Source: a virus (taxonomy: Duplodnaviria; Caudoviricetes). Taken from it: DNA of 63,869 nt. Below are positions 1,919-56,395 of this stretch, piece after piece; the stretch's first letter is position 1; the number at the start of each line of letters is the position of its first letter. The DNA is taken from the IMG/VR virus record IMGVR_UViG_3300027816_000108, positions 1 through 63,869 of that record, one strand, 5' to 3'. The translations under genes were made by a program, and so were the position numbers. The notes below the pieces were generated by a model that was given only the letters and a program-made list of their open reading frames with translations, searched no databases and was not told the origin of the DNA.

Positions 1919-2173
1919 ATGAAACAAATTAAACACAAATACGACCTTAAAATCTACAACGGCAGAGTAAAGGTCTATGTTGATGGATACGTCATGTTCT
2001 CGTTTAACCAAATTGACTTCTTGGGATACTATGCATACAAAGACGACACATCTCTTTTTGGTTTAGATATTCACCTTCTCCGTGAAAAAGCGGGAGGATA
2101 TACAATGGAAATCTATTTCAAAACAAAAGAGAATTGGTTGAACATCCTTAAATTGCTTGACGAAAACCTATGA
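1919..2173 (+). CDS. Hypothetical protein
   Basis: ORF abutting the previous gene. Confidence 0.7.
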   Translation: MKQIKHKYDLKIYNGRVKVYVDGYVMFSFNQIDFLGYYAYKDDTSLFGLDIHLLREKAGGYTMEIYFKTKENWLNILKLLDENL

Positions 2174-2236
2174 TGCTTGTACTATTTACCCCTTTATGGG
2201 TGGTTATGGGTATTAACTATTTAAAGGATAAAATCA

Positions 2237-2470
2237 ATGAAACCAATAGAACAAGAACAAGCCAATGATATTGTTCGGAATAAACTATCCGAATGGCTGA
2301 AAAATGACGGGAATAATATATCGGGAAACTATTTTAAGTGGATGCTTATAGATGTTCTGCTTACCTATACCCAATGGAGGGCTTGTAATAGGTTTCATAG
2401 TCTATGGCAAAAAATATGTTTTAAACTAATTTATCCCGCAATTATTTGGATTATAAGGAAAACAATCTAA
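2237..2470 (+). CDS. Hypothetical protein
   Basis: ORF in the + strand operon. Confidence 0.55.
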   Translation: MKPIEQEQANDIVRNKLSEWLKNDGNNISGNYFKWMLIDVLLTYTQWRACNRFHSLWQKICFKLIYPAIIWIIRKTI

Positions 2471-2476
2471 CACTAA

Positions 2477-3772
2477 ATGACACTTACCGAGCAAAACAAT
2501 AAAACCCCCGAACATACAAGTGTGGTGGTGATGTTCCCATATCCAAGTGGTGCAGGGCTGCACGTGGGACATTTCTATAACTACGCTATTATAGATAGCT
2601 ATTGCCGATACCTGCGATATGTAGGACATAATGTGTTTCAACCGTTTGGGTACGATGCCTTTGGCTTGCCCGCTGAAAACTACGCTAAAAAAGTGGGGCG
2701 TGACCCCCGTGAGGTTACGTATGAAAACATACAAAACTTTTCACGTCAAATGGAAAGCATGAACACTATGTACGAAACCCTGCTTACTACCTCAGATGAA
2801 GGGTATCAGGGGCTTGTACAAGAATTGTTTATGCTGCTGCTTACACACGGGCTTGCCTATAAAGCTATGGGTACACAAGACTATTGCCCATCCTGCGAAA
2901 CCGTACTTGCACGTGAACAAGTTGCTGACGGTAAATGCGAAAGGTGTGAAACCCCCGTTGAACAAAAACAACTTGAACAATGGTATTTTAAAATTACCGA
3001 ATACAAACAACGCCTGATTGATAACATACTGAACGGCAAATCAGGACTTCCAAAAGAAACCGCTAATGCTCAGTTGAAATGGCTTGAAAACCAACACGAT
3101 TGGTGCGTTAGCCGCCAAAGGGCTTGGGGTTGTCCTATTCCCATACAGGGCGAAACCGATACTCTTGATACATTCGTTGATAGTAGTTTCTATTTTATCG
3201 TGTATCAACTGATAAAAGGATATAAACCCAAACCCATTGACCTGTATGTGGGTGGTAAGGAACACGCTTGTATGCACCTGATTTATGCAAGATTCATTAC
3301 TATGTTTCTTTATGACATCGGGATTATTGACTTTGATGAACCGTTTAAAAAGGTTATACATCAAGGCATGATTCTGAAAGACGGGCAGAAAATGTCTAAG
3401 TCTAAGGGAAACACCGTTAGCCTTGATGACTACGATAGCGATGAAATCAGGTTCTACCTCATGTTTATCGGACACTATTTTGACGGGGGTAGTTGGAATG
3501 ACCAAAATATCAACGGCATAAAACGCTTTATTGCCCGATTTAAAACATGGATGGGTAAAACAGGTGATGACACCGTTGACCTTGATTCATTTAAAAAAAC
3601 TATCTTTGCATATACCGAATCGTTTAAATTCAATAAGGTGGTTAGTTCGTTTATGATACTGCTGAACGAAAATAAAAACAAGTCCCTGACAAACAAATGC
3701 AAAGACGAACTGATTGACCTGCTTAATATCTATATGCCGTCCTTTAGGCTTAAAATGTGGCAAAACCCATGA
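2477..3772 (+). CDS. leuS: Minimal leucyl-tRNA synthetase-like protein (class Ia aaRS lacking CP1 editing and C-terminal domains)
   Basis: MFPYPSG..LHVGH, GYDAFGLPAENYA, CPSC...CERC Zn knuckle, QWYFKIT, DWCVSRQRAWG, DTFVDSS, YVGGKEHA.MHLIYARF, KMSKSKGN. Confidence 0.9.
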   Translation: MTLTEQNNKTPEHTSVVVMFPYPSGAGLHVGHFYNYAIIDSYCRYLRYVGHNVFQPFGYDAFGLPAENYAKKVGRDPREVTYENIQNFSRQMESMNTMYETLLTTSDEGYQGLVQELFMLLLTHGLAYKAMGTQDYCPSCETVLAREQVADGKCERCETPVEQKQLEQWYFKITEYKQRLIDNILNGKSGLPKETANAQLKWLENQHDWCVSRQRAWGCPIPIQGETDTLDTFVDSSFYFIVYQLIKGYKPKPIDLYVGGKEHACMHLIYARFITMFLYDIGIIDFDEPFKKVIHQGMILKDGQKMSKSKGNTVSLDDYDSDEIRFYLMFIGHYFDGGSWNDQNINGIKRFIARFKTWMGKTGDDTVDLDSFKKTIFAYTESFKFNKVVSSFMILLNENKNKSLTNKCKDELIDLLNIYMPSFRLKMWQNP

Positions 3773-4065
3773 AACACAAAAAACTAACATACGATGAGTT
3801 TATACGTGATATTATCAATATGGAACTGATGCTCAAACACGTATGCTACGATGACCTTGATGAACAACCCGTGTTCGGTGAATTTGACGGTGTGCCGTTC
3901 TATCAATACTTTTCGTTTGACACCAAACGGGAACATGAAGCATGGCGTGAATACGTGTATAAGCGTATATCCGATTGTAACAGCTTAAGACACTATACAA
4001 AAAAACTCAAAATACAACTTGTATGTTATCTTGATTTAGTGTACGGTTTCCGAATCAACTACTAA
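3769..4065 (+). CDS. Hypothetical protein
   Basis: ATGA overlap with the LeuRS-like gene. Confidence 0.7.
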   Translation: MKHKKLTYDEFIRDIINMELMLKHVCYDDLDEQPVFGEFDGVPFYQYFSFDTKREHEAWREYVYKRISDCNSLRHYTKKLKIQLVCYLDLVYGFRINY

Positions 4066-4215
4066 TGGTTCGGAATTTCTTTTTCTATTTATTCAAAATA
4101 TCGTGCAAACTTGTGTTTGCATGGGGTGATATGTGGAACAAACACTAATTTAGTTTGTTTCTACACAATCATTGTATTACATTTGCACAATCATTGAAAA
4201 TCATAATATAATTCT

Positions 4216-5550
4216 ATGACAAATAAATTCATCCCGAACGGACAAGACAGGGAGAAAAAAATCAAGGCTATTAAACTCTATCATGCCTTTTTAAAACAAA
4301 ACCACACTAAGTTCCAATGTGTTGCTGATGCGACAAAAGCATTTATTGACGAACATGGGCTTTGTGGGTATGCAAGTTTTGATAGCCTTAAACAGCTAAC
4401 CCTTAGCTATCCCAAAACGTACAAATTGTATGTATCTAAAGGGCTTGTTGAACAAGACGAACCCGTACATATCAATAAATTGTATTTGGGTAAACACAAG
4501 CATAGGGATAAAACCCCTAAAGTAAAACCCAAAGAACTATCGGTTGATGATGAGATTGAGCAGGATTTAAGGGAGTGGAAATCAAAAGCCGAACAAAAGG
4601 ACATTAGACGAAAGTTCGATAATCTGCTTGGCAGATACAATCAACTGATGCACGACTATGAAACGCTTGCTGCTTTACGGGAATACACCCCACAAGATTT
4701 ACATATCAAGGAGGTTGTACCAACGGGTAAAAGCATGGCTGCTGCTATTGTGCAGTACAGCGATTGGCACGTGGATGAGGTGGTAAAGGCAAGTACCGTA
4801 AACTATAAAAATGAATATAACCCCGATATTGCTAAAAAACGTGCAGTTAAATGTATTCAGAATACTCTGCGAGTTATTAAAACATTCAGACACGACATTG
4901 CAGTTAATGACATTGTTATTCAACTTGGGGGTGACTTTATAGGTGGCTACATACACCCCGAACTTGAACAAACCAATTCTATGTCACCGCTTGAGGGTAT
5001 CCGATTTGCTACTGAACTGCTTGTGAACGGTATTAACTTCTTGGCTGAATACGGAGATTTTGATACCATTACGCTTGTATGTAACAGGGGTAATCACTCC
5101 CGATTAACCAAAAAAATGCAGTCAAACGACTACGCTATGAACCTTGAACAAAATATGTACTATGACCTTGCCAAAAAATTCAGGGATGATGAGCGTATGA
5201 AATTTGTAATCAATGATGCAGAAGTGGTGTATGTACCTATATTTGATAAAATAAACCGTTTCTTTCACGGGCATCAAGTAAAATCACAAGGCGGTATTGG
5301 GGGTATCGGTATTCCGTTGTACAAACAACTACACCGTTGGGACGCTTCACAACACGCTGACTACAACTTTATGTGTGATAAACACACCTACTCACAACCC
5401 ACCGAAAATTGCAATATTAACGGCTCACTAAAAGGGTGGGATGCGTATGCTATTGGCAAGGGATTCAAATACCAAGAACCCCTGCAAAGTTTACAGCTAT
5501 TGGACAATAAACGTGGTTATACAATCAGAACAAAAATAATTTGCGAATAA
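4216..5550 (+). CDS. Calcineurin-like metallophosphoesterase (phage nuclease/phosphoesterase)
   Basis: SDWH, GGDFIGG, GNH, FHGH and DKH metal-binding motifs. Confidence 0.85.
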   Translation: MTNKFIPNGQDREKKIKAIKLYHAFLKQNHTKFQCVADATKAFIDEHGLCGYASFDSLKQLTLSYPKTYKLYVSKGLVEQDEPVHINKLYLGKHKHRDKTPKVKPKELSVDDEIEQDLREWKSKAEQKDIRRKFDNLLGRYNQLMHDYETLAALREYTPQDLHIKEVVPTGKSMAAAIVQYSDWHVDEVVKASTVNYKNEYNPDIAKKRAVKCIQNTLRVIKTFRHDIAVNDIVIQLGGDFIGGYIHPELEQTNSMSPLEGIRFATELLVNGINFLAEYGDFDTITLVCNRGNHSRLTKKMQSNDYAMNLEQNMYYDLAKKFRDDERMKFVINDAEVVYVPIFDKINRFFHGHQVKSQGGIGGIGIPLYKQLHRWDASQHADYNFMCDKHTYSQPTENCNINGSLKGWDAYAIGKGFKYQEPLQSLQLLDNKRGYTIRTKIICE

Positions 5551-5551
5551 T

Positions 5552-5824
5552 ATGAAAAAAATAGAATTAACAGGAATAGAAGCCGAGTTATACATCATGG
5601 CGTGTGAACACTTTGGCTCGTTATCACAATTTATTGATGCTGTGACAAATGACAAAGCACAAGCCGAAGATAATGTTTGTCTTCTTAGTCAAAACCTTGA
5701 GGAAGCCATTAAAATAGCTGACCACTATCGGGAGTTAGTTGACGCATACCGCAATATGTCACCCCCAAAATTTACATGGTGTTGGATGAAATCGCTTGTT
5801 ACTAAAAAACCCGTAAACGTATGA
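5552..5824 (+). CDS. Hypothetical protein
   Basis: Operon continuity. Confidence 0.65.
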   Translation: MKKIELTGIEAELYIMACEHFGSLSQFIDAVTNDKAQAEDNVCLLSQNLEEAIKIADHYRELVDAYRNMSPPKFTWCWMKSLVTKKPVNV

Positions 5825-11029: not shown

Positions 11030-11094
11030 AAAATGTTAATTATACCACAAAGGTAATACATAGTGTAATACCCTGCAAATTATTTTTGAAAAAA

Positions 11095-11223
11095 TTATCT
11101 TCCTTGTCTGTTGTATGCTTTTACTGATTCGTGCTTGTTGCGCTTTTTCTTCTGCACGCCTGTTTTCTTTTTACCGAAACTTACCTTACGTTGTTCTTTT
11201 GTGGGTTTGCCTACTTTTGCCAT
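11095..11223 (-). CDS. 42 aa highly basic peptide (not in the ORF track)
   Basis: MAKVGKPTKEQRKVSFGKKKTGVQKKKRNKHESVKAYNRQGR; TATATTTG promoter upstream. Confidence 0.6.
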   Translation of the reverse strand: MAKVGKPTKEQRKVSFGKKKTGVQKKKRNKHESVKAYNRQGR

Positions 11224-11459: not shown

Positions 11460-11978
11460 TCAATAGTTGATAGTGTCTAATACGCTTTGTATATAAGCCA
11501 AATCAGATTCATCCAATGAAAACCATTCACCACGCACTCTTTTTTCAGCGTATTTTTTGTGCAGGTTAGATTCTAATTTTCTTGAATTTTCGGTTTTACT
11601 CATGCCATAAAACAAAAGACTAATTGTTGGTCTTATTGAAAGCATAGTGTGTTCTCTGTATTTGGGGTCTTTAGATATGCCTATTTTGTAATAATTTGTT
11701 AATTCATCAAACATTACATATAGAAATGAACCGCTATTATTACCACTAACGGGGGCTTTTCCCGATACAAGGTTTAATAGTTCTTCTTCTAACAAACCCT
11801 CATTGATTTTGCTTATATCGTTTTCTTCTGCAAACTTAATTGTGTTTGAAATATATTTGCTTATCAATTCAGCATCGGTCTTTGATAAGTATTGGCAATA
11901 CCCGTTAAGGTTTATTATTATGCCGTTTTCTTGGTCTATGCCAAGTATAATTGGTTTAGAGAAATCCATAATCCGCAT
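11460..11978 (-). CDS. GIY-YIG/T5orf172 (MUG113-like) domain protein
   Basis: LYVM...YKIGISKDP..R...E..LHKKY..KRVRGEWF; start placed after the TATATTTG promoter. Confidence 0.8.
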   Translation of the reverse strand: MRIMDFSKPIILGIDQENGIIINLNGYCQYLSKTDAELISKYISNTIKFAEENDISKINEGLLEEELLNLVSGKAPVSGNNSGSFLYVMFDELTNYYKIGISKDPKYREHTMLSIRPTISLLFYGMSKTENSRKLESNLHKKYAEKRVRGEWFSLDESDLAYIQSVLDTINY

Positions 11979-12041
11979 ATTATTTAATGATACAAATATA
12001 CAATTTTTTAAAAAAACACTTGCATTTATATTTTTTTGTTG

Positions 12042-12149
12042 TACTTTTGTATTGCATTGCATGCGGCTTTGCGGTATATTTGTATCGAATTTCTTTTTGA
12101 AGTCATATAAGAATCCCTGCTGGCCGCATACAGTGGGGTTTTCTTTTTT
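12042..12149 (+). ncRNA. Promoter plus leader hairpin whose loop is complementary to the transcript 5' end (attenuator/antisense-like)
   Basis: TACTTTTG at 12042-12049; ATGCGGC at 12061-12067 pairs with loop GCCGCAT at 12123-12129; stem 12109-12145 ending in a T-run. Confidence 0.4.
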
Positions 12150-12445
12150 ATATGTACCCCACAAATGCATTTTTAGCTTGAAGCATAATGCGACCGTGAA
12201 AGTACGAGCAGATTCGTTGATGTTTGACGACAAAACATAATACCCTTTAAATGACGTGCAAGGACGAAACACTATCCTGCGTCAGCCATACAATACTCAG
12301 AACTCGCTTATACCGAAGTTAATTGGTTAGGGTGTTTCCATTCTTTCTTGTGGGGGTGGGGGTGGAAACACCTTTTCCTACCTCCAAGCCTTGAATCTGC
12401 TTACCCGAAGTTTAATATTGACTTGCTTATATCGGTAGAATAAGT

Positions 12446-16450: not shown

Positions 16451-19400
16451 ATGGAACAGCAAGACCCAATAAAAGACGCTCTTAGAGATTTTGTTGCCAC
16501 GTCTAATAGTGGCAAATATAGCAGTGAAGATGAATTGCTATCTAAATTTCCCGAGTTAAAAGGCTTTGATAAACAAGTTTTACGGGATTTTGTTGCTACA
16601 TCAAATAGTGGTAAATACAAAACAGAAGAAGAAATATTTTCAAAATTCCCTGAGTTTCAGGACATTAAAAAAAAAATACCTACAGAACCTACTACGTCCG
16701 TTTCAAAGAGTGGTGGAGTACCCACTTCCCCGTTAATATTTACATCAGCATCAGAATCACCCGAAGGGAAACCTAAGACATTTGGTGAGATTGGGGGCGC
16801 ACCGCCTAAACCAAAGGCACTAAAGGAAACTTTAATTTCTCCAAAACCGCAAGAACAACCCACCTTTGGTGAATTAGCCGAACAGGGTAAGATAAAGCGT
16901 GAAGAAAATAAAGACAAGTATGCTGTATTTCAAGGGTATGAGGGATTGCAAAGCGAACTTAGTGCTATTGATAAAGCCCTTAATTCAAGTGAAATAAAGA
17001 ACGCATCCCGCTATGTAGATAAGGCAGAAAAGGATTACTTGCTTAATAGAAAAGCGGAGTTGGAGAATAAACGGCTAACAACCAAGCAAAACGCTACATT
17101 AAACTACAAGCAAACACAAGCAGAGTTAGATAAATTCATACAAGGCGACATCAAGACAAACGGGCTTGATTATTTTACAAGAGTAAACAATAGTGGTTTT
17201 AAAGTAGCCGACCCCGAAAAAATTGATGAGTGGGCAAAGAACCTTTCCATGATGTCGGGGATGTCCGATGAGGGGTATTTCAAGGATTTGGCTTACAATA
17301 AAATGAAATCCAATATTCAGTATGAAATAGCCAAGCCCGAAATTGAAAAGACATTTAATTCATTGTATGAAAAGAAGTATGGCAAAAAAACACAGCAAGA
17401 CATACAAGCAGAGTTTGAAAAAACATTTAAGGCGCAGCAGGATATAGAGCAACAGCTAACATTGCAGGTTTCATCGGTTGTTAATCAGATAAAGCAATCG
17501 CAGCAAGCGGATATTAACCAAATAAAAAACACATATCAACCCCAATTAGATGCACTTAATGTTGGGTATGAACAGCAAACACAAGAAATAAAAACCCAAG
17601 CTAATGCTTTAAATCAACTTTATACCACAAAGCAAATATCCTATGAGGATTATGTTCGAGGTATAAACGAATTAAACGCAGGCATACAGCAATCAAACGT
17701 TCAATACAAAGAGCAATTTAATGCAGCAGCAACAGAATACCTTAATGCACAGCGTGAACTAAACGGTAAATATGCTGCAAGGTACAAAAGGCAGGTTGCT
17801 GAATTAAAGGCAATGGCTGATAATAGATTAAAGCAAGAGTTAGCCAAATACCAAAAAGAATACAAAATATCACCCGAACTTCAAAAGCGATACAATGATA
17901 CGTGGAAAGAAGCCACCAATGTGTTTGCTGAAAGCGAAGAGGGGCTAAAACGTGGGTTGGATGAATTAAAACCGTCATCTTATGTTTTTGCTCAATCCGT
18001 AATAAGTGGGCTTGGTGGTGCTGTAAGTTCTTTGTCAACATCACTTGGGTATGACGGTGGTAAGGTTATGGGGGATTACCTATCAAGTATGTTTACCCTA
18101 TCAAACCCCGAAATAAAAGAAGCAAAAGACCTTTTAGATTTAACCAAACTTTCTCGTTCAACGGGTGAAATGATTGGTGGTATGTTGCCAATAATGGCTG
18201 CACAAGCAATTACAGCAACAGCAACGGGTGGTTTATCAATACCCACTCAATTAGCATTACAAGGGGGTGTTGCGTTTACGGTTGAAACCGCACAGTTGGG
18301 CGGTGCTATGTACGATGAAACATTTGAAAGAACGGGTAATGTTGCAGAAGCAGAAAAAGCAGCAGCAAAGGTAATACAAGGAAACTTATATCTTTTACCA
18401 CTTTATGCAGTAGACGGTCTTCCATTCATAGACAATGCAACTTTAGGACTTAAAAATATTTTCTTAAAGGGTGCAGCCAAAGGTGGTGTTGAAGTAGCAA
18501 CCGAACTCCCACAAGAGTTTTTTCAGGGGGCTTTTGAAGATTTAGCCCGTTCAAACAAAGATATTAGTCAAATAGGTGAAAACATAACATTAGATAGGCT
18601 TGAAAATACGTTGCTAAACATAGTTCCGTCATCTTTTGCTATGGGTGCAACCCCTACATATTTGGGGGACATGAAAAACTTATGGACTAAAATTGAAGCT
18701 AAATCATTAGCAGCCAAACACGATTTAAGCAAATTATCAGAAACCGCTGTTCAGCAGTATATGTATGATATGTACCTTAGATATGGGGAATCGTTTTCTA
18801 AAGCATACTTATCGGGTTTGTACCAAAGCAACAAAATTGATGAAGTACAAGCAAAGCGTCTTACAGATATATTAGATTCAGCCAAAACCGTTATTGAAAA
18901 CTCAGAAAGGTTTAAACTAACAAAAGGGCAAAGTAAGGTATATGCAGCATTACTGTTTGATTACGAAAACGCTAAAACAGAAGCAGAATCAGCCACAGAT
19001 GAAATAGTAAAAGATTCGCTTAACAAAAAAGCCAATCAATTAAAAGCAATAGCATCAGATTATCTTTCAAACAAAAATGCTGAATTTGCGGTAATAGTAT
19101 TACCTAACAATGAACAATATGTTGTAACATTGCAGGAAGCAACCGATATGTTAGATGATGCAAGTTTTTCTAACAAGGTAAGGGCTAATGAGGTAAAGAT
19201 AGTACCACAATCAACTCAAAAAACAGAACAATTTAATACTTTAGAAAACAGATTAAAAACCATAGCAAATGAACCCATTACAAGAACTGACGAAGGAAGA
19301 GTTACTACAACTGAAGAACCAATTAGAGCAGCAGCTACAACAGGTGAAGAAGGAGTACAGGAAACGAATGTACCTATTGGAGAAGAAGTAGTCCAAACAG

Positions 19401-22400
19401 TTGAGGGAGAAAAAGCAAAGCCAACAGAACCCGCACAATCGGATAAGTCTTACATAGAAGCACAAGAGGTAACAGCAAATGTTTCAAAGGAAAATCCCGA
19501 AGCAAGTGTATTAATACAACCTAAAGGGGATGATTTAGTATTAACAGCAGTATATGTAGGTAAAGAAAAGCGTGGAAAGGGTATTGGCTCAAAGGTGCTT
19601 GAAACCGTAAAAAGCGAAGCAGATAGACTTGGTAAAAAAGTAGTATTAGATGCCACAAACGAATTGGATAGTGAAACCAATTTGGAACGACTTGGTAATT
19701 TTTACGAAAAAAACGGGTTCAAAAAGATTGGTGAAAATAAGTTTGAATACACACCCCAAGAAGTAGTATCTGAAACTCCTGCATTAAGAGATGTAGAGAG
19801 TACGGCTAAGGCGTTGGAGGGGGTAAAAGGGAAAAGTGGGAAAGATGTTTATTTGGAAGCCCAAAAAGCAGGTAGCGAGAATAACGATTTTGATGAAAAC
19901 ATGAGTGAATATCAAAATCAAATTGAGCAAAATGAATATTTGTTATTAAATATACCAATAGAAAAATTAGTAGAAAATGACCCTGATTTAAAGGAATACA
20001 TAGATGCTGGCATAGATGAATCTTCCCCCAAAAGAAGTATTAAACAACCAATAATTATTGGAAACGCAGAAAGAGGGTCGTTTAATACTATAAAAGACGG
20101 TGTTATTGATGGTTTTCATAGAGTAGAGCAATCTATAATAAATGGTGAAAAGTTTGTAAAGGCGTATGTGCCTAAAAACTCGAAATTAATTTCCGAAGCG
20201 TATCACAAAGCAAAAGCAGACAGAAGCAATCCTGAATTAGTAAAAGCAGTAGAGGAACTAATAACTAAACAATATGAACAAGAAATCAAACAAAAAGATG
20301 CCCAACCCCTGTCAGAAGGGGTACGAGGCTTACGGACTGAAACCGAAGAACGGGAAGCAAGTGCCCAACTGCGTACCGAAAAAGAAGAAGTAAAACCCGA
20401 ACTAACCCCCGCAGAAAAGACCAACCTTGAAAGTGTAGGAGAACAAGTAGGTAAAAACTTTAGAGAAGTACAGAATGTATATGCTAAATACGGTGAGGGT
20501 AAGCCCCTATCAGAAATAACAGCAGAAGATTACCGCAAAGCGCAGGAAAAGCGTGACGCATCAAAAGCCCCTGACATTGAACAGGTTGCCCAAAAATCAG
20601 GCATAACGCCTAAAAACCTAAAAGACCTGTACAACATTAACAGAGATTTGTTTGGGCTTGATAGAATCAAGTCTTTTGCCTCTGCAATAGCAATGGATAG
20701 AATGGTGGGGGCGATGGCTAAACGAGCAGGTATTACCAAAGAACAAATGTATGGTAGGTTGGATTTCAAAAAAGACACACAAGAAAACGTACTAAAAGCC
20801 GACAATGCGCTATTTCAGGGAACAGTAAACGGGCAAGAGGTATCATTAAAAAACATCGATATTGATGTAGTAAACGGGTTTTACTCACCCATAGAGAAAC
20901 GCCTTGCCGAAACCAAAATTGAAAAGCAAAGCGCAAATAAATGGCTTACTGTAATAGGCAAGGGGGATGAAGCTACTTGGACAGGAGTAAGAGCATGGCT
21001 TGAAAGCAAAAACCCACAAGAAACTGTATCTAAATCTGAAATCCAACAATGGATGAAAGATAATAGGATTAGTGTTGTTGAGGTGGTGAAGGGAGAAAAA
21101 GAAAAGCCAAAGCAATACCAAAGGTTTGATGAAATAATAGATACGCTTAAAAGCAGGGGTTACGATGTTGAGGTAGAAGATTACGGAGGCATGGATATGG
21201 GTGTAAGAGGTGTAGATGATGGGCAGGTGTACTTAGACACAGGTAATTATTATTCAAAAAGGGAAGATTTAATAAGAGAGGGGTATTCCGTAAAAGACAC
21301 ATACGAAGAAGATGTTAAACTTTTGGAAGAGGCAAAAAAAATAGCATCAAACCTTGCTTACAGACAACAAAAAGAAGATACTTTATCTGAAACCAAATTT
21401 TCCCAATACCAATTAGAAGGAGAAAAGGAAAACTACAAAGAGATATTGGTTACGTTGCCTAATAAAAATAAATATGATTCAATAGAAAAAAGAGAGAATG
21501 ACAAGGCAAAAGAGTTATTTGGTAAAAGTTTCGATGAACTTGATATATATGAAAAAGGTAAGGTAAGCAATATTATTGCAACCCAAAGTAGAGAAATTGT
21601 CGGTTTTAAATCCACCCACTTTGACGAACCTAACATCCTTGTTCACTTGCGTATGAACACCCGTACTGATGCAGATGGTAACAAAGTATTGTTTTTGGAG
21701 GAAGTGCAAAGTGATTGGGGGCAACAAGGAAAGAGAGAAGGTTTTGAAATAGACAAATCGCAAAAAATTAAAGAACTTGAAGAAAAGTTAAAACAAGCGT
21801 GGGAAAAACAATCTAAAGAAACTGACTTTTTAAAAAGAGGTGAAATTTACGAAACAGAAGTAAAGCCACTTGGTTTTGCACTTGAAGAAGCTAAAAATCA
21901 AAACAGAATACAAAAAACTCCAACCGCACCATTCGTAACCGACACAAACGCTTGGACTAAATTAGGTTTAAAAGTAGCATTAAAAGAAGCAGTAAAACAA
22001 GGTGCTGATAAGATTGCATGGACAACAGGAGAGCAGCAGAATGACAGGTATGATTTGAGTAAATCAGTTGATAAAGTTTACTACAATCCAAAAACGAAAG
22101 AATTTGGTTATTTTGGTACAGACAATTTACAGCCCGATGTGTTCCCTAAAACAGAACCAAGCAAGATTGTAGATTATGTAGGTAAAGACGTTGCAGAAAG
22201 ATTATTAAATTCAGAAGTTAATGAAGATGGGCTACAAGAACTAAAAGGCAATGATTTAAAAGTAGGTGGTAAAGGAATGAAAGGCTTTTACGGTTCACCA
22301 ACAGAAGGTAGTTTAGGCATAGTAGGTAATGTAGCAAAGAGTTTATCTAAGCAAGAGCCGAAAACTATTGAGATAACAACACAATTTAAACAACCTACAC

Positions 22401-23260
22401 AAGAAATATACGAAAGCCCAAATGGCAATTGGTTTGTTGATTGGACAGAAGAAAATGGTAGAACATATCAAAAAACATTTAAAACAGAAAAAGAAGCAAA
22501 AGTTTGGGCGAAAGAGAATTTAACAACTACTACATCAACCCAACACTCCATAGACATAACGCCTGAACTAAGAGCGGAAGTAGAACGTGGCTTGGCATTA
22601 TTTCAAAGAGAACAGGGTGGCAAGGCTAAGGGTGCAATGGTAGCAGCAGACGGAAGTTACGTTATCTACGCCTTAACAGACCCCAATGTAAGCACCCCGT
22701 TACACGAACTTGCCCACGTATTTGAGCATTACCTGACTGATGCAGAGATAGCAACCGTAATTAAAAACGCAGGTACAAAAGGTTGGACAACCGAAACAAG
22801 TGAATACTTTGCAAGAGGTTTTGAAAAATACCTTGCAGAGGGTAAATCACCTATTGAAGCCCTAAATAAAGTATTTGCCAAGTTCAAAGAATGGCTTACC
22901 GAAATTTACAATGGCATAAAAGGCTCAGGCATAGATGTTAAGCTAAATAACGAAATGCGTAGTATCTATGACAAGATGCTTGGTGTTGAAAAGCTAATTG
23001 ACGAGCAGGTAGTAGATGAAGTAGCCGAAAAGGTAATACAAGCCCGTGATGCAAAAAGGGGATATGACAAGAAAGGTGGCAGGAAAAAAGCATTTGAAAC
23101 CCAAGCTACGCTAAATGAAAAAGCCCAAAAAGCAATGGACGGTGTAGATACCAAATCCCCTGAATATGAAACCGTTAAGGCTATCGAAGAAAACATAGAC
23201 GATATTATGAATGATTTGATGAACAACGGTTTAATAGAAGACACAGATTGTGTATTATAG
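16451..23260 (+). CDS. Giant polyvalent/ejection protein (GNAT, ParB-like and zincin HExxH domains)
   Basis: VYVGKEKRGKGIG...FYEKNGF (GNAT); PIII...IDGFHRV (ParB/Srx-like); EEVQSDW domain; PLHELAH at 22703-22717; N-terminal tandem repeat LRDFVATSNSGKY. Confidence 0.75.
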   Translation: MEQQDPIKDALRDFVATSNSGKYSSEDELLSKFPELKGFDKQVLRDFVATSNSGKYKTEEEIFSKFPEFQDIKKKIPTEPTTSVSKSGGVPTSPLIFTSASESPEGKPKTFGEIGGAPPKPKALKETLISPKPQEQPTFGELAEQGKIKREENKDKYAVFQGYEGLQSELSAIDKALNSSEIKNASRYVDKAEKDYLLNRKAELENKRLTTKQNATLNYKQTQAELDKFIQGDIKTNGLDYFTRVNNSGFKVADPEKIDEWAKNLSMMSGMSDEGYFKDLAYNKMKSNIQYEIAKPEIEKTFNSLYEKKYGKKTQQDIQAEFEKTFKAQQDIEQQLTLQVSSVVNQIKQSQQADINQIKNTYQPQLDALNVGYEQQTQEIKTQANALNQLYTTKQISYEDYVRGINELNAGIQQSNVQYKEQFNAAATEYLNAQRELNGKYAARYKRQVAELKAMADNRLKQELAKYQKEYKISPELQKRYNDTWKEATNVFAESEEGLKRGLDELKPSSYVFAQSVISGLGGAVSSLSTSLGYDGGKVMGDYLSSMFTLSNPEIKEAKDLLDLTKLSRSTGEMIGGMLPIMAAQAITATATGGLSIPTQLALQGGVAFTVETAQLGGAMYDETFERTGNVAEAEKAAAKVIQGNLYLLPLYAVDGLPFIDNATLGLKNIFLKGAAKGGVEVATELPQEFFQGAFEDLARSNKDISQIGENITLDRLENTLLNIVPSSFAMGATPTYLGDMKNLWTKIEAKSLAAKHDLSKLSETAVQQYMYDMYLRYGESFSKAYLSGLYQSNKIDEVQAKRLTDILDSAKTVIENSERFKLTKGQSKVYAALLFDYENAKTEAESATDEIVKDSLNKKANQLKAIASDYLSNKNAEFAVIVLPNNEQYVVTLQEATDMLDDASFSNKVRANEVKIVPQSTQKTEQFNTLENRLKTIANEPITRTDEGRVTTTEEPIRAAATTGEEGVQETNVPIGEEVVQTVEGEKAKPTEPAQSDKSYIEAQEVTANVSKENPEASVLIQPKGDDLVLTAVYVGKEKRGKGIGSKVLETVKSEADRLGKKVVLDATNELDSETNLERLGNFYEKNGFKKIGENKFEYTPQEVVSETPALRDVESTAKALEGVKGKSGKDVYLEAQKAGSENNDFDENMSEYQNQIEQNEYLLLNIPIEKLVENDPDLKEYIDAGIDESSPKRSIKQPIIIGNAERGSFNTIKDGVIDGFHRVEQSIINGEKFVKAYVPKNSKLISEAYHKAKADRSNPELVKAVEELITKQYEQEIKQKDAQPLSEGVRGLRTETEEREASAQLRTEKEEVKPELTPAEKTNLESVGEQVGKNFREVQNVYAKYGEGKPLSEITAEDYRKAQEKRDASKAPDIEQVAQKSGITPKNLKDLYNINRDLFGLDRIKSFASAIAMDRMVGAMAKRAGITKEQMYGRLDFKKDTQENVLKADNALFQGTVNGQEVSLKNIDIDVVNGFYSPIEKRLAETKIEKQSANKWLTVIGKGDEATWTGVRAWLESKNPQETVSKSEIQQWMKDNRISVVEVVKGEKEKPKQYQRFDEIIDTLKSRGYDVEVEDYGGMDMGVRGVDDGQVYLDTGNYYSKREDLIREGYSVKDTYEEDVKLLEEAKKIASNLAYRQQKEDTLSETKFSQYQLEGEKENYKEILVTLPNKNKYDSIEKRENDKAKELFGKSFDELDIYEKGKVSNIIATQSREIVGFKSTHFDEPNILVHLRMNTRTDADGNKVLFLEEVQSDWGQQGKREGFEIDKSQKIKELEEKLKQAWEKQSKETDFLKRGEIYETEVKPLGFALEEAKNQNRIQKTPTAPFVTDTNAWTKLGLKVALKEAVKQGADKIAWTTGEQQNDRYDLSKSVDKVYYNPKTKEFGYFGTDNLQPDVFPKTEPSKIVDYVGKDVAERLLNSEVNEDGLQELKGNDLKVGGKGMKGFYGSPTEGSLGIVGNVAKSLSKQEPKTIEITTQFKQPTQEIYESPNGNWFVDWTEENGRTYQKTFKTEKEAKVWAKENLTTTTSTQHSIDITPELRAEVERGLALFQREQGGKAKGAMVAADGSYVIYALTDPNVSTPLHELAHVFEHYLTDAEIATVIKNAGTKGWTTETSEYFARGFEKYLAEGKSPIEALNKVFAKFKEWLTEIYNGIKGSGIDVKLNNEMRSIYDKMLGVEKLIDEQVVDEVAEKVIQARDAKRGYDKKGGRKKAFETQATLNEKAQKAMDGVDTKSPEYETVKAIEENIDDIMNDLMNNGLIEDTDCVL

Positions 23261-54560: not shown

Positions 54561-55115
54561 TTAAAGAACGACACTGCTCTCAACTTCATTTCCCCAAACA
54601 TCCCAACCATTTCTCGGATAACGGCAGAAAAGTTCAACTCTTGGTAAATCACCAAACAACAGTTCAATTCGCTCAATCGCTTCAATAGGTTTCTTACTAT
54701 GTTTTGTTCTTTCTGCTTCTATTAGTTGAAAAATGTTGTTTGCTTTTTTGTGTTGCAACATATTACCTTTTGCACCTAAAATACACACCTCACAGTTTTT
54801 CATTGTCCACGCCCCAACATTTGCACAAGTATTGCCTTTATTGGTTATTTTCTTCCAAATAAAAACTATTGTTCGGTATGTAAAGCCCCACGCTTCTATT
54901 AATTCAATCCCTTCTTTTAGGTGGCTATCTGTTACCCATAAAAATAAAGCACAATCTTTGTCTGCAATATCTTTTACTGGTAATTGTTGCAACTCTTTTT
55001 TTGTCATCGTTGGGTATTGCTCATCTATAAGTCGGTCTTTTCTGCCGTTATCCTGATAAACCCCTTTGTTAAATCCCCAAGCTGGGTCTGCATAAATTAT
55101 TTGATATTTCTTCAT
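54561..55115 (-). CDS. MT-A70-family adenine methyltransferase (cassette 1)
   Basis: IIYADPAW, LFLWVT, WGF.Y.T..F.W.K, HSKKP, ELF.R...GWDVWGNE. Confidence 0.9.
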   Translation of the reverse strand: MKKYQIIYADPAWGFNKGVYQDNGRKDRLIDEQYPTMTKKELQQLPVKDIADKDCALFLWVTDSHLKEGIELIEAWGFTYRTIVFIWKKITNKGNTCANVGAWTMKNCEVCILGAKGNMLQHKKANNIFQLIEAERTKHSKKPIEAIERIELLFGDLPRVELFCRYPRNGWDVWGNEVESSVVL

Positions 55116-55555: not shown

Positions 55556-56395
55556 CTACATTTCGTTTCCAAATAGAGTTTCTGCCTGTAAATCTTTTTC
55601 TTTTCTTTTTTCTTCCCTCGCTTTTTTAATACGTTCTTCAATAATATTACAGTATTCATTTGATAATTCACTTCCAATAAAATTTCTATTACTTAAAATA
55701 CTCATTTTTGCAGTAGTTCCACTTCCCATAAAGCAATCATAAACTAAATCATTTTCATTGCTCCAAGTTATAATGTGGTCTAAACATAATTGTTCTGGGA
55801 ACATTGCAGGATGTTCAAAAGCAAAAGTATCTGATGTTGTATTTCCTTTCCCTGTTGCATATTCCCAAATATTATATCTATACCCAAGTTCTTCAACTAA
55901 TCTTTGTTTTCTATCTCCAAGTACGCCATCCTTTTCTCTTACGGTTGTTTTGCCAAACGTATAAGTTCCTCCGTATTTATTTTTTCTATCTTTTATTAAG
56001 TTAGTTGTTTTCGGTTTGCCTTTGCTTAATACAAACATAAATTCAATAGCATCTCTATATCTTCCTTTATGTGGCAATCCTCCGCTTGTTTTAGAATAAA
56101 TCATTGTGTCATAGACATTAAATCCGATACTTTGAAAATATAAACATTGTTTAAATGATGTAAGGCTTTTATTTCCATTCACAGTAGCATCTTTTACAAC
56201 CCAAATAACAACTCCACCTTGTTTGGTTATTCTATATAATTCTTTTGCAATATCCTCAAATGGAAATGAATACCCCTTGTAATCTCTTAAATTATCGTAA
56301 GGTGGAGATGTTACTGTTAAATCCACAAAACAATCGGGCATTTTTGCCATTGTTTCTAAATTGCTTTCATTATAATTCTTGTTTATCTCAATCAT
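55556..56395 (-). CDS. N4-cytosine/N6-adenine DNA methyltransferase, beta class (cassette 3)
   Basis: TSPPY, HPAMFP, DCFMGSGTT. Confidence 0.9.
   Translation of the reverse strand: MIEINKNYNESNLETMAKMPDCFVDLTVTSPPYDNLRDYKGYSFPFEDIAKELYRITKQGGVVIWVVKDATVNGNKSLTSFKQCLYFQSIGFNVYDTMIYSKTSGGLPHKGRYRDAIEFMFVLSKGKPKTTNLIKDRKNKYGGTYTFGKTTVREKDGVLGDRKQRLVEELGYRYNIWEYATGKGNTTSDTFAFEHPAMFPEQLCLDHIITWSNENDLVYDCFMGSGTTAKMSILSNRNFIGSELSNEYCNIIEERIKKAREEKRKEKDLQAETLFGNEM

Follow-up and report, generated by a model that had tools for sequence, protein, structure and literature searches.

The gene at positions 2477..3772 (plus strand, as are all features below) of a freshwater crAss-like phage of about 64 kb is an open reading frame for 431 residues, its stop codon included in the coordinates, with neither a frameshift nor an internal stop. 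Its product, which we call mini-LeuRS, is an intact LeuRS-type class Ia synthetase. The bacterial LeuRS profile TIGR00396 (leuS_bact) matches it in three stretches with 333.1 bits (E-value 3.6e-99), below the profile cut-off of 548.4, and the match stops at profile position 759 of 843. The metG profile gives 137 bits (cut-off 336.35) and the MshC profile TIGR03447 gives 46.8 bits (cut-off 485.1), both again below threshold. The top match in a PDB sequence search was 3ziu (E-value 3e-70). The names obtained from source databases amount to the automatic label 'leucyl-tRNA synthetase'.

The features described in an earlier, sequence-only reading of this DNA, namely a frame of 431 residues with HVGH, KMSKS and a zinc knuckle, were all found at the residues given here. 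HVGH, the class I HIGH signature, occupies residues 29-32 (2561..2572), and H29, G31 and H32 are present in 28/28 members of the mini family; KMSKS occupies residues 305-309, with K305, M306 and K308 likewise in all 28. The E. coli residues D80, Y527, E532, H533 and H537 are ones we take to define the LeuRS synthetic site. Together with Y43, R424, R426, K619 and K622 they have equivalents in every one of the 28 mini members, and Y43, D80, Y527, E532, H533 and H537 are also present in 37-38 of 38 longer sequences. Overall, 73 positions conserved at 90% or more carry the identical residue in the mini family and in longer LeuRSs, and the catalytic residues relevant to transfer that we checked each occur in 25-28 of 28 mini members. 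The ZN1 zinc knuckle (residues 137-157, 2885..2947), with C137, C140, E147, C154, R156 and C157, is complete in mini-LeuRS, with 45/45 aligned residues present; its cysteine positions are kept in 26/28 members, and E147 and R156 in 28/28. The available portion of PMC13454842 names Tyr43 for the synthetic site and, in E. coli, C159, D162, E169, C176, R178 and C179 as the counterparts of these ZN1 residues.

Alignment to the annotated LeuRS of E. coli K-12 (Ec; 37% identity over 424 aligned columns) shows which parts have gone. Residues 3-205 of mini-LeuRS align with Ec 24-226, the N-terminal ~20 residues of the E. coli enzyme being absent. None of the 190 residues of the CP1 editing domain (Ec 227-416) has an aligned counterpart, and a PF13603 search of mini-LeuRS gave no match; CP1 would sit between N205 and Q206, within the junction L203-E-N-Q-H207 (3083..3097). 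AQLKWL continues straight as ENQHDWCVSRQRAWG in the translation (residues 198-218), just as the sequence-only reading had it. In the mini family L203, E204 and N205 reach a conservation of at least 90%, and they are not the residues of the full-length majority. Residues 206-223 align with Ec 417-434; at the I223/Q224 junction (3143..3148) a second insertion of 49 residues (Ec 435-483) is lost entirely, and where it is present it contains at least three cysteines in 28 of 37 aligned sequences. Residues 224-303 align with Ec 484-573. The leucine-specific domain (Ec 574-617) is absent, and by alignment and conservation its place is taken by the linker L-K-D-G-Q leading into KMSKS (residues 300-309, 3374..3403). 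Residues 304-430 align with Ec 618-775 in compacted form, 98 against 125 residues over Ec 651-775, which bears out the claim of a shortened anticodon-binding bundle. This compact helical bundle (residues 342-431, 3500..3769; delimited by alignment to Ec 651-775 and by the helices of the model) has conserved residues specific to the family, such as K387. The protein ends where the C-terminal, tRNA-elbow domain would start: Ec 776-860 is absent, with no residue aligned to Ec 796-860. The absence of CP1 and of the leucine-specific and C-terminal domains in an unbroken frame, as originally proposed, therefore holds for all three, but the leucine-specific gap is nothing peculiar to mini-LeuRS. It is inherited, since the nearest full-length relatives share it; indeed, the domain has 0 residues in all 29 intermediate and full-length relatives tabulated. 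The proposed list of losses had, on the other hand, overlooked two: some 20 residues at the N-terminus, and the second insertion.

The AlphaFold2 model of the 431 residues is confident (pLDDT 93.6, pTM 0.92), and its bundle consists of five helices (residues 342-359, 369-381, 385-399, 406-419 and 423-429). The top structural match found by Foldseek is again M. mobile LeuRS 3ziu, with a TM-score of 0.90 on the query. Both the fold and the profiles, among which leuS_bact scores best (333 bits vs 137 for metG), agree with the assignment to LeuRS on which the sequence-only reading had relied. A homodimer might, according to structure prediction, replace the missing C-terminal domain, although the support is thin. 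The prediction scored 0.42 (three runs: 0.00, 0.44 and 0.42) against 0.00 for the best of three controls, with a contact agreement of at least 33% and a partner pLDDT of at least 85. This is barely at the mark, which was reached by 20 of 30 proteins solved as one-chain pairs and by 1 of 23 solved as single chains; since we used our own alignment, these counts are a rough guide only. The predicted interface is moreover the least conserved part of the protein (0.565 vs 0.791 overall; none of 5000 random residue sets was as low), and we do not rely on the dimer.

Mini-LeuRS is a selected LeuRS derivative devoid of the editing domain, and not a pseudogene. The mini family, which is under strong purifying selection, comprises at least 120 clusters at 70-99% identity, all of 406-454 aa, and to our knowledge it is smaller than any LeuRS studied so far. 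Intact reading frames of 405-442 aa were found in 29 of 31 viral homologues; of the two exceptions, one reads 487 aa and one (L033) is frameshifted. The median omega is 0.136 (101 of 325 pairs with 0.05<dS<2), and the closest pairs have values of 0.03-0.1. Pseudogenisation among homologs, named at the outset as grounds for abandoning the idea, is thus contradicted both by the intact frames and by dN/dS. Contigs from four runs of three studies contain the window gene complete, differing by 2-5 substitutions and free of indels; only four variable sites are listed (two synonymous, S94N and P192S), and none of the listed holders of the gene is an RNA dataset. In FastTree phylogenies, whose supports are SH-like local values, the mini clade is monophyletic with a support of 1.0. 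Its members were found on phage contigs only, namely those of huge phages and of two crAss-like phages of ~63 kb, the window phage being one; the GenBank relative closest to mini-LeuRS (67% identity) is encoded in LR745206.1, a record of 635 kb. In the tree, from which M. mobile LeuRS (MmLeuRS) itself was left out, full-length LeuRSs are interspersed with CP1-less forms of 569-706 aa, and apart from P0125 and P0127 these are not sisters of the mini clade. Nine of the ten tabulated forms of 530-706 aa retain 45-54 residues of the second insertion and 56-145 of the C-terminal domain; the tenth, P0122, is the exception and belongs to the mini clade. A 508-aa LeuRS of the 735 kb phage LR756501.1, located after five tRNA-Leu genes, is likewise without CP1 and a C-terminal domain, yet it groups with E. 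coli-type LeuRSs (support 0.98-0.995). By this placement it is unrelated to the mini family and has converged on the same form.

The genomic surroundings differ between the window phage and its larger relatives. No tRNA gene was detected in the window, that is, the whole stretch of 63,869 nt analysed here, either by ARAGORN or by Rfam at gathering thresholds, in keeping with the original description of a phage without tRNAs. The record is the whole IMG/VR entry and is 89% complete by the CheckV estimate, so a tRNA gene may lie in the missing part. Mini-LeuRS is the only translation gene found in this phage, and the second crAss-like phage of ~63 kb repeats the pattern of mini-LeuRS without tRNA genes. 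In whole records of huge phages, by contrast, the tRNA-Leu covariance model has 34 matches with scores of at least 70 bits, and 19 of them, spread over 7 of 10 records, are no more than 3 kb from the LeuRS gene, whereas random placement would give 0.64; leaving out one match read by ARAGORN as having a Gln anticodon, the figures are 18 of 33 and 6 of 10. The linked genomes (6-7 of the 10) have most of their own tRNA-Leu genes within 3 kb of the LeuRS gene, and in the other 3-4 the nearest tRNA-Leu is 31-229 kb away. Five of the linked genomes belong to the mini clade; a common ancestor may have passed the arrangement on to them, and they should not be counted as five independent events. The same tRNA arrays contain short, 74-75-nt 'type I' tRNAs with Leu anticodons. 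These score 52-68 bits with the tRNA-Leu model, most other matches, taken as ordinary tRNAs of assumed isotype, scoring about 50 or less; when descent from long-arm tRNA-Leu was examined by 5'-half identity, only three of nine had a type II tRNA-Leu as their nearest tRNA. The huge phages also carry other short synthetase genes, namely ValRS-like ones of 450 and 509 aa, an IleRS-like one of 655 aa and a MetRS gene of 484 aa, which fits a general streamlining of translation enzymes. Adjacency of a synthetase to its cognate tRNA is not a general rule, however: neither of the two short ValRS-like genes lies beside tRNA-Val, and one adjoins four tRNA-Leu genes.

We also considered whether the lost modules might be supplied in trans or by a partner. 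The window has no TIGR00396 match outside the mini-LeuRS frame, and five huge-phage records have neither a match to profile positions ~780-843 nor a second LeuRS, leaving no spare CP1 or C-terminal module in the six genomes checked. Among neighbouring genes, the most frequent cluster after LeuRS itself occurs in 9 of 32 loci; the window has no neighbour cluster in common with the others.

Taken together, mini-LeuRS is probably a minimal, proofreading-free LeuRS that charges tRNA-Leu, in the window phage the tRNA of the host. Its LeuRS synthetic site, canonical throughout, would activate leucine with ATP, and the leucine would then be passed to tRNA-Leu, which would be held only by the catalytic core, by the ZN1 finger at the acceptor end and by the compact bundle on the inner side of the L. 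The enzyme would work beside phage-encoded tRNA-Leu genes in huge phages. The window phage has no tRNA genes, so its substrate would have to be host tRNA-Leu, whose charging could provide extra leucylation capacity during infection. We infer leucine activation, tRNA charging, the absence of post-transfer editing in vivo and a benefit to the phage, and we count the retained ZN1 residues and helical bundle in favour of a role in charging, together with the conserved synthetic site, the fold shared with the active M. mobile enzyme, purifying selection, linkage to tRNA-Leu genes, the convergent 508-aa enzyme and the other short synthetases. The family-specific residues H333, F335, D336 and K387 are candidates for replacing the lost elbow contact. 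The idea that such an enzyme is error-prone goes no further than plausible, because only post-transfer editing is structurally absent. Experiments on larger enzymes weigh against charging: the available text of PMC3561953 reports that deletion of the C-terminal domain abolished aminoacylation by T. thermophilus and E. coli LeuRS and that truncation of M. tuberculosis LeuRS lowered tRNA binding to about 30%, and in the portion of PMC13454842 at hand the E. coli C-terminal domain contacts the variable arm and the D-loop. The profile score of 333 against 548 bits, the lack of a module in trans, the unlinked genomes and the failed ValRS control are to be entered on the same side. A bolder and more tentative version, which we consider possible but not probable, is that mini-LeuRS leucylates independently of the variable arm. 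Loss of its C-terminal and leucine-specific domains, the readers of the long variable arm and the elbow, would let it charge both type II tRNA-Leu and the 74-75-nt tRNAs. The short tRNAs may be beyond the reach of an ordinary host LeuRS: according to part of PMC6614811, E. coli LeuRS charges type II tRNA only. Were this version true, mini-LeuRS would be the smallest natural LeuRS, the enzyme and its tRNAs would form a pair partly private to the phage, and small crAss-like phages would have captured the enzyme alone.

The same observations can be read in other ways. Mini-LeuRS could be a paralogue that binds tRNA-Leu and/or makes Leu-AMP without charging. As a decoy or regulator it might, for instance, tie up uncharged tRNA-Leu or signal leucine or ATP status during infection. 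The requirement for the C-terminal domain in the bacterial LeuRSs tested (PMC3561953) and the family's score under the LeuRS cut-off agree with this, as do sections of PMC9437257, in which Sulfolobaceae LeuRS-I binds tRNA-Leu and forms Leu-AMP yet is incapable of charging, and the activity of halobacterial LeuRS2 is very low. We nevertheless regard it as unlikely, given that transfer-relevant residues are kept in 25-28 of 28 members, that LeuRS-I is not a clean minimal core, its CP1 being disrupted and its C-terminus aberrant, and that the presence of short ValRS-, IleRS- and MetRS-like genes alongside in these phages points to a shared role in translation and not to regulation specific to leucine. 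An enzyme still more remote from charging, a tRNA-independent adenylating one supplying activated leucine for Ap4A synthesis or another aminoacyl acceptor, had been proposed from the outset. Two tRNA-handling modules, CP1 and the C-terminal domain, are indeed gone, and synthetase paralogues in such roles are known from other families (a table in PMC9437257). However, the bundle and the ZN1 finger are kept under purifying selection, tRNA-Leu genes are linked in 6-7 of 10 huge-phage genomes, the protein does not resemble the ligase paralogue MshC (46.8 bits vs a cut-off of 485), and no acceptor or partner gene is conserved alongside. With its tRNA-binding parts conserved, tRNA-Leu genes linked and ValRS-, IleRS- and MetRS-like genes pared down in much the same way in the relatives, repurposing is less likely than had been claimed, and we give it little credence.

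Somewhat better placed, though improbable as a reading of its own, is that host LeuRS becomes limiting, inhibited or targeted in infection and the phage for this reason supplies a copy of its own. Self-immunity copies of LeuRS protect against LeuRS-directed antibiotics, and the two chains of one of them, AgnB2 (5ah5), hold Foldseek ranks 3 and 4, which reflects a shared fold only. In favour of such a bypass, no translation gene other than mini-LeuRS was found in this 64 kb phage without tRNAs, and a second such phage is alike; against it, no linked inhibitor, toxin or defence gene was found and no neighbour is conserved across contexts. Since a bypass itself needs tRNA charging, it adds a motive to the preferred reading, charging of tRNA-Leu, and no separate mechanism. 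The original form of this idea, that the enzyme counters a shut-off of host translation, found nothing in its favour. Finally, half the normal length and the frameshifted L033 might suggest a decaying, functionless remnant of a captured host leuS. This is scarcely credible in view of the clade support of 1.0, the at least 120 clusters all of 406-454 aa, omega values of 0.03-0.14, a compact and confidently modelled fold and clean domain boundaries. Of the original interpretation, a genuine, selected, editing-less LeuRS derivative stands, the link to shut-off is unsupported, and adenylating repurposing has become less likely.

Bacterial LeuRS is a textbook multi-domain enzyme whose C-terminal domain is held to be necessary for charging, and even the 637-aa LeuRS of M. 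mobile is said to be exceptionally small. A selected form of ~405-440 aa in many phages would therefore redefine the minimal machinery of tRNA-Leu recognition. It would represent a natural experiment between engineered 'urzymes' and modern synthetases, and possibly a compact scaffold for engineered synthetase-tRNA pairs. Proofreading would also be dispensable for phage-encoded class Ia synthetases. The distribution of the family shows that crAss-like phages of ordinary size, too, receive translation genes of huge phages. If mini-LeuRS does not charge tRNA, it would be a new kind of phage regulator linked to tRNA or leucine.

Among the matches listed in a full-text literature search, supplements aside, no phage LeuRS without CP1 and the C-terminal domain was described, and the main text of the crAss-like survey PMC7886860 contains none of the terms 'synthetase', 'tRNA ligase' or 'leucyl'. 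The closest known system, best in both sequence and structure, is MmLeuRS (3ziu, 637 aa). In the available text of PMC3643597, this enzyme naturally lacks CP1 and the leucine-specific domain and aminoacylates, with a kcat/Km of 0.24 per s per uM, without post-transfer editing; its GKDG before KMSKS is described there as a minimal functional substitute for the leucine-specific domain. In both proteins a short linker replaces CP1, W202-L-E-N-Q-H-D208 in mini-LeuRS and a nonapeptide in MmLeuRS (PMC3643597), and the tetrapeptide before KMSKS differs in its first residue, which is L in L300-K-D-G303 and not G as in G-K-D-G. MmLeuRS has ~64 extra residues between the regions matching residues 231 and 251 of mini-LeuRS and ~84 extra at the C-terminus; these are the second insertion and the C-terminal domain, both absent from the phage family. 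It is, moreover, a cellular enzyme and the sole LeuRS of its organism, whereas mini-LeuRS is an accessory phage gene. With canonical bacterial LeuRSs (E. coli 4aq7/3zgz, T. thermophilus 1h3n) mini-LeuRS has in common the synthetic site, ZN1, the KMSKS loop and the helical anticodon-binding domain, but not the N-terminal ~20 residues, CP1, Ec 435-483, the leucine-specific domain or Ec 776-860. Minimal MetRS cores of ~500 aa (S. aureus 7wpl, T. thermophilus 2d54) show the same combination of Rossmann fold, zinc knuckle insertion and helical bundle (TM-score 0.72-0.76 on the query, 0.61-0.67 on the target); the sequence signature of mini-LeuRS is, however, that of LeuRS (leuS_bact 333 bits, metG 137). 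Huge phages encode tRNA synthetases, as many as 15 in a genome, which were proposed to charge phage tRNA variants (Al-Shayeb et al. 2020, PMC7162821); the accessible text of that study does not mention domain loss, and mini-LeuRS also occurs in crAss-like phages of ~63 kb without tRNAs. Sulfolobaceae LeuRS-I and halobacterial LeuRS2 likewise have altered CP1 and C-terminal regions and maybe a role outside standard charging, according to part of PMC9437257. Yet these are archaeal-type or chimeric, full-size, cellular proteins found beside a normal LeuRS, whereas mini-LeuRS is a clean bacterial-type core carried on phage DNA.

The gene at 2477-3772 (+) is most economically explained as, and probably is, a genuine minimal leucyl-tRNA synthetase (LeuRS) that dispenses with post-transfer editing and is used for translation. 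Its open ORF encodes 431 aa with Pfam matches to the class I synthetase families tRNA-synt_1g (E 2.4e-37) and tRNA-synt_1 (E 1.1e-36). The top NCBIfam match is bacterial LeuRS, TIGR00396 (333.1 bits in three stretches, E 3.6e-99), a score far above those against the MetRS, ValRS and IleRS models and below the family cut-off of 548.4 bits. Aligned to E. coli K-12 LeuRS (Ec numbering), the protein shows clean, in-frame gaps at the N-terminal segment (Ec 1-23), the editing domain CP1 (Ec 227-416), a second insertion (Ec 435-483), the leucine-specific domain (LSD; Ec 574-617) and the C-terminal segment (Ec 776-860), and its helical anticodon-binding region is compacted to 98 residues from 125. The open ORF and this alignment bear out the sequence-only reading, which had described a half-size, editing-less LeuRS. 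Its list of losses is right for CP1 and the C-terminal domain (CTD); the LSD gap is real but is also present in all 29 longer relatives tabulated, and the Ec 435-483 insertion had been overlooked. The LSD is missing from the B. subtilis and M. mobile enzymes as well (PMC3643597). Of 37 aligned sequences that have the Ec 435-483 insertion, 28 carry at least three Cys in it, so for most relatives it is a second zinc module.

The remaining core is well preserved. At 73 positions conserved to at least 90%, the residue is common to longer enzymes and the mini family, by which we mean the phage LeuRSs of ~405-440 aa without CP1 and CTD, including the window protein; only 8 near-universal positions deviate in that family. 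Every synthetic-site and signature residue that we checked is present in 25-28 of the 28 mini members, and so are those of ZN1, which have been connected with activation and with the holding of tRNA bases 74-75 (PMC13454842). Comparison with LeuRS by HMM and predicted structure, a check that had been proposed from the sequence, gave TIGR00396 as the best family and M. mobile LeuRS (3ziu) as the best structure. The AlphaFold2 model is compact and of high confidence (pLDDT 93.6, pTM 0.92) and superposes on 3ziu with TM 0.90 on the query; other LeuRSs come next, and MetRS cores reach 0.72-0.76. Compensating contacts could come from some of the 34 family-specific conserved positions; candidates are H333, F335, D336 and K387, which lie in the stem-contact and helical region.

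The carrier is a crAss-like podovirus: the window has genes for a Crassvirus muzzle protein (PF25731, E 1.1e-37), a portal and a terminase, along with an exonuclease and a BT4734-like primase-helicase. The LeuRS gene is the sole translation-related gene found in it, and, in keeping with the claim of a phage without tRNAs, neither ARAGORN nor Rfam detected any in this whole IMG/VR record, which is 89% complete by CheckV estimate. Likewise, no tRNA was found in a second crAss-like carrier, G010 (63 kb, 86% complete). In the tRNA-less window phage, the mini-LeuRS would act on host tRNA-Leu. The window also carries an esterase gene, a 2269-aa ORF (16451-23260) with a GNAT acetyltransferase domain at residues 1024-1092 (PF13508, E 8.5e-08) and, after it, a 1395-aa ORF without a family match; giant proteins of this kind are typical of crAss-like phages. 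A T5orf172/MUG113-domain protein and two DNA methyltransferases are encoded in the non-structural arms (11460-12272 (-), 54561-55115 (-) and 55556-56395 (-)). Window positions 2000-4300 recur near-identically in 20 DNA runs from 15 studies, whose labels are freshwater, lake-water or 'fungus' metagenome; six of the 20, from three studies, carry no flag as possible sources of the window DNA. Four of these unflagged runs contain the complete LeuRS gene on a single contig piece that differs by 2-5 substitutions and has no indels; the near-identical X15 piece among them may itself be the source of the window DNA.

In most of the larger genomes scanned, tRNA-Leu and LeuRS genes are linked. Within 6-kb flanks, tRNA-Leu genes lie directly upstream in five non-redundant mini-clade loci (L014, L017, L027, L028 and L030), the last one ending 16-22 bp before the LeuRS start codon in L030 and L028. 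In the huge phage LR756501.1 (locus L122), five tRNA-Leu genes are followed by a 508-aa LeuRS, with a 256-aa GIY-YIG-like ORF (L122:11216-11986) wedged between array and LeuRS gene. At LR745206.1, L015, L016 and L019, tRNAs occur nearby, none with a Leu anticodon. As a control, the two short ValRS-like genes do not adjoin tRNA-Val, and one of the two adjoins four tRNA-Leu genes ~229 kb from that genome's mini-LeuRS. Because this control cut against a simple adjacency reading, we trained a covariance model on 22 long-arm tRNA-Leu genes and searched ten whole records with it at a threshold of 70 bits, chosen by us (training members score 75-98 bits). Within 3 kb of the LeuRS gene lie 19 of 34 matches, in 7 of 10 records, against 0.64 predicted by random placement; omitting one match to which ARAGORN assigns a Gln anticodon leaves 18 of 33, in 6 of 10 records. 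As the five linked mini-clade genomes may share the arrangement by descent, the independent linkage events number at least two, not six.

The tRNA-Leu of bacteria is normally type II. Nine 'type I' tRNAs of 74-75 nt with Leu anticodons (taa, caa, tag) and a 4-5-nt variable loop sit in arrays of long-arm tRNA-Leu adjoining CTD-less LeuRS genes (L014:4782-4855; L017:4815-4889, 5031-5105, 5115-5189; L028:3931-4005, 4114-4188, 4562-4636; L122:11009-11082, 11087-11161). Eight of the nine have A73, and they score 52-68 bits with the tRNA-Leu model, most other matches of whatever isotype scoring ~50 bits or less; more 74-75-nt matches (59-68 bits) occur elsewhere in the records G014, G015, W02 and G001. 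Other tRNAs, of 82-91 nt, combine a long variable arm with Ile, Asn, Thr, Met, Cys, His or Gln anticodons, some possibly ARAGORN misfolds (L014:3037-3122, 4267-4353, 4882-4966, 5253-5337, 5512-5597; L028:3155-3238; L019:10569-10659; L121:15110-15191; L124:2072-2153); the 82-nt Gln(ttg) species among them scores 71.6 bits in W02 and 68.5 bits in G001 with the tRNA-Leu model. ARAGORN also reports four-letter anticodons (acat, gtag, ttac), that is, 8-nt anticodon loops, in huge-phage arrays (L014:5173-5245; L121:14513-14586; L122:1128-1218).

In a FastTree phylogeny on 431 window columns, 27 (later 28) mini sequences and the 530-aa protein P0122 form one clade (support 1.0) on a long branch, so the minimal architecture arose once; the CP1-less LeuRSs of 569-706 aa are scattered among full-length ones, so CP1 loss is recurrent. 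P0122 keeps part of CP1 (PF13603, profile positions 81-135 of 185), but its second insertion and CTD are already gone; the mini family therefore descends from a canonical LeuRS. This metagenomic protein, from contigs of up to 5.6 kb, has a CP1 remnant of ~115 aa with TTKPET- and GTG...VP.DD-like motifs and is a possible transitional form. The 508-aa LeuRS of the 735 kb phage LR756501.1 (L122:11983-13509) falls among E. coli-type enzymes in the tree (support 0.98-0.995); CP1 (here a 14-residue linker) and the CTD are missing from it, and the second insertion (CxxC...CxxC) is retained. Given this separate ancestry, two phage lineages converged on a CP1-less, CTD-less LeuRS. Huge phages with a mini-LeuRS also encode two ValRS-like proteins (450 and 509 aa), one that is IleRS-like (655 aa) and a MetRS core (484 aa) (L116:491-1843; L120:396-1925; L117:507-2474 (-); L118:499-1953), each under its own family cut-off; profile matches of the ValRS-like proteins skip the CP1 region. 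Since these proteins too are short, streamlining appears to be a general feature of the class Ia synthetases of these phages.

The notion that the gene is a dead remnant of leuS deserves hardly any credence and is contradicted by the data. In a 90%-clustered protein database, 7996 of 8000 candidates match the window protein, and the best 120 of them are all 70-99% identical and 406-454 aa long, on contigs of up to 221 kb. Clustering at 50% reduces the mini family to one full-length representative (P0121, 429 aa, 65% identity), P0122 and fragments, the remaining matches being longer LeuRSs at 40-50% identity. Among 31 viral loci (contigs of 13-519 kb), 29 have intact ORFs of 405-442 aa, and one encodes 487 aa owing to an unrelated low-complexity tail. 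The sole disrupted homologue (L033:6013-7271) is broken by one frameshift near residue 235, beyond which the remainder reads on intact in a different frame; this may reflect an assembly error or recent inactivation. The dN/dS analysis, likewise proposed beforehand, gave a median Nei-Gojobori omega of 0.136 over the 101 of 325 pairs with usable dS (the 224 saturated pairs fall outside the estimate) and 0.03-0.1 for the closest pairs. A scan of one genome for each of 185,579 prokaryote species, which takes its peptide words from the query and so reaches no more than close relatives, recovered the mini form in only 5 of 80 loci kept (69-72% identity). All five are contigs from MAG bins, 1.6-35 kb long; the labels read Bacteroidota, Bacteroidetes, Flavobacteriaceae or Flavobacterium in four cases and 'uncultured bacterium' in the fifth, and one of these contigs, of 34,585 bp, is also that of viral locus L007. 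Much larger phages stand behind several of the carrier records, which are fragments with a completeness of 17-30%. Three records of 211-508 kb (G001, G002 and G003, of loci L013, L014 and L017) are classed by IMG/VR as 'provirus', which may reflect their host-like translation genes; they look like huge, tRNA-rich, lytic-type phage genomes.

The main doubt about charging is the missing CTD. Deletion of this domain abolishes aminoacylation in T. thermophilus and E. coli LeuRS (PMC3561953); the tRNA variable arm touches it, and the D-loop touches the C-terminal, leucine-specific and anticodon-binding domains (PMC13454842). We found no sign that the missing modules are supplied in trans: the LeuRS profile has no second match in the window, five huge-phage records, of which four are at least 97% complete, contain neither a match to the CTD profile positions nor a second LeuRS, and no conserved neighbour gene was found across the contexts of mini-LeuRS loci. 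A predicted homodimer just reaches the mark (score 0.42; runs 0.00, 0.44 and 0.42; best of three controls 0.00), a mark reached by 20 of 30 proteins with structures solved as same-chain pairs and by 1 of 23 solved as single chains, rates that apply only roughly here because we supplied the alignment ourselves. At least 33% of contacts agree between runs, and partner pLDDT is at least 85; we give the dimer little weight, since its interface (loop 242-250, helices 406-429) is the protein's least conserved part. The main rival to charging is a paralogue that binds tRNA and forms adenylate without aminoacylation, for which Sulfolobaceae LeuRS-I offers a precedent (PMC9437257); we consider it unlikely. 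Bypass of an inhibited host LeuRS would provide a possible motive, but no direct support for it was found, and we rate it lower still. Slightly less probable again is a role independent of tRNA, a poor fit to the tRNA-facing parts that the protein retains.

Parts of this picture are already known: M. mobile has a LeuRS without CP1 and LSD, and CP1 has been lost repeatedly in tiny bacteria. Phage-encoded synthetases are on record for huge phages (PMC7162821). In the main texts of the top-ranked full-text matches, we found no description of a large, monophyletic, phage-restricted LeuRS family of ~405-440 aa that also lacks the second zinc insertion and CTD, of its occurrence in crAss-like phages of ordinary size that carry no tRNAs, of its linkage to tRNA-Leu arrays, or of a convergent second CP1-less, CTD-less phage lineage. 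The pre-KMSKS linker of the window protein, L-K-D-G, is close to the G-K-D-G of M. mobile LeuRS, a tetrapeptide shown to be a minimal functional replacement of the LSD (PMC3643597).
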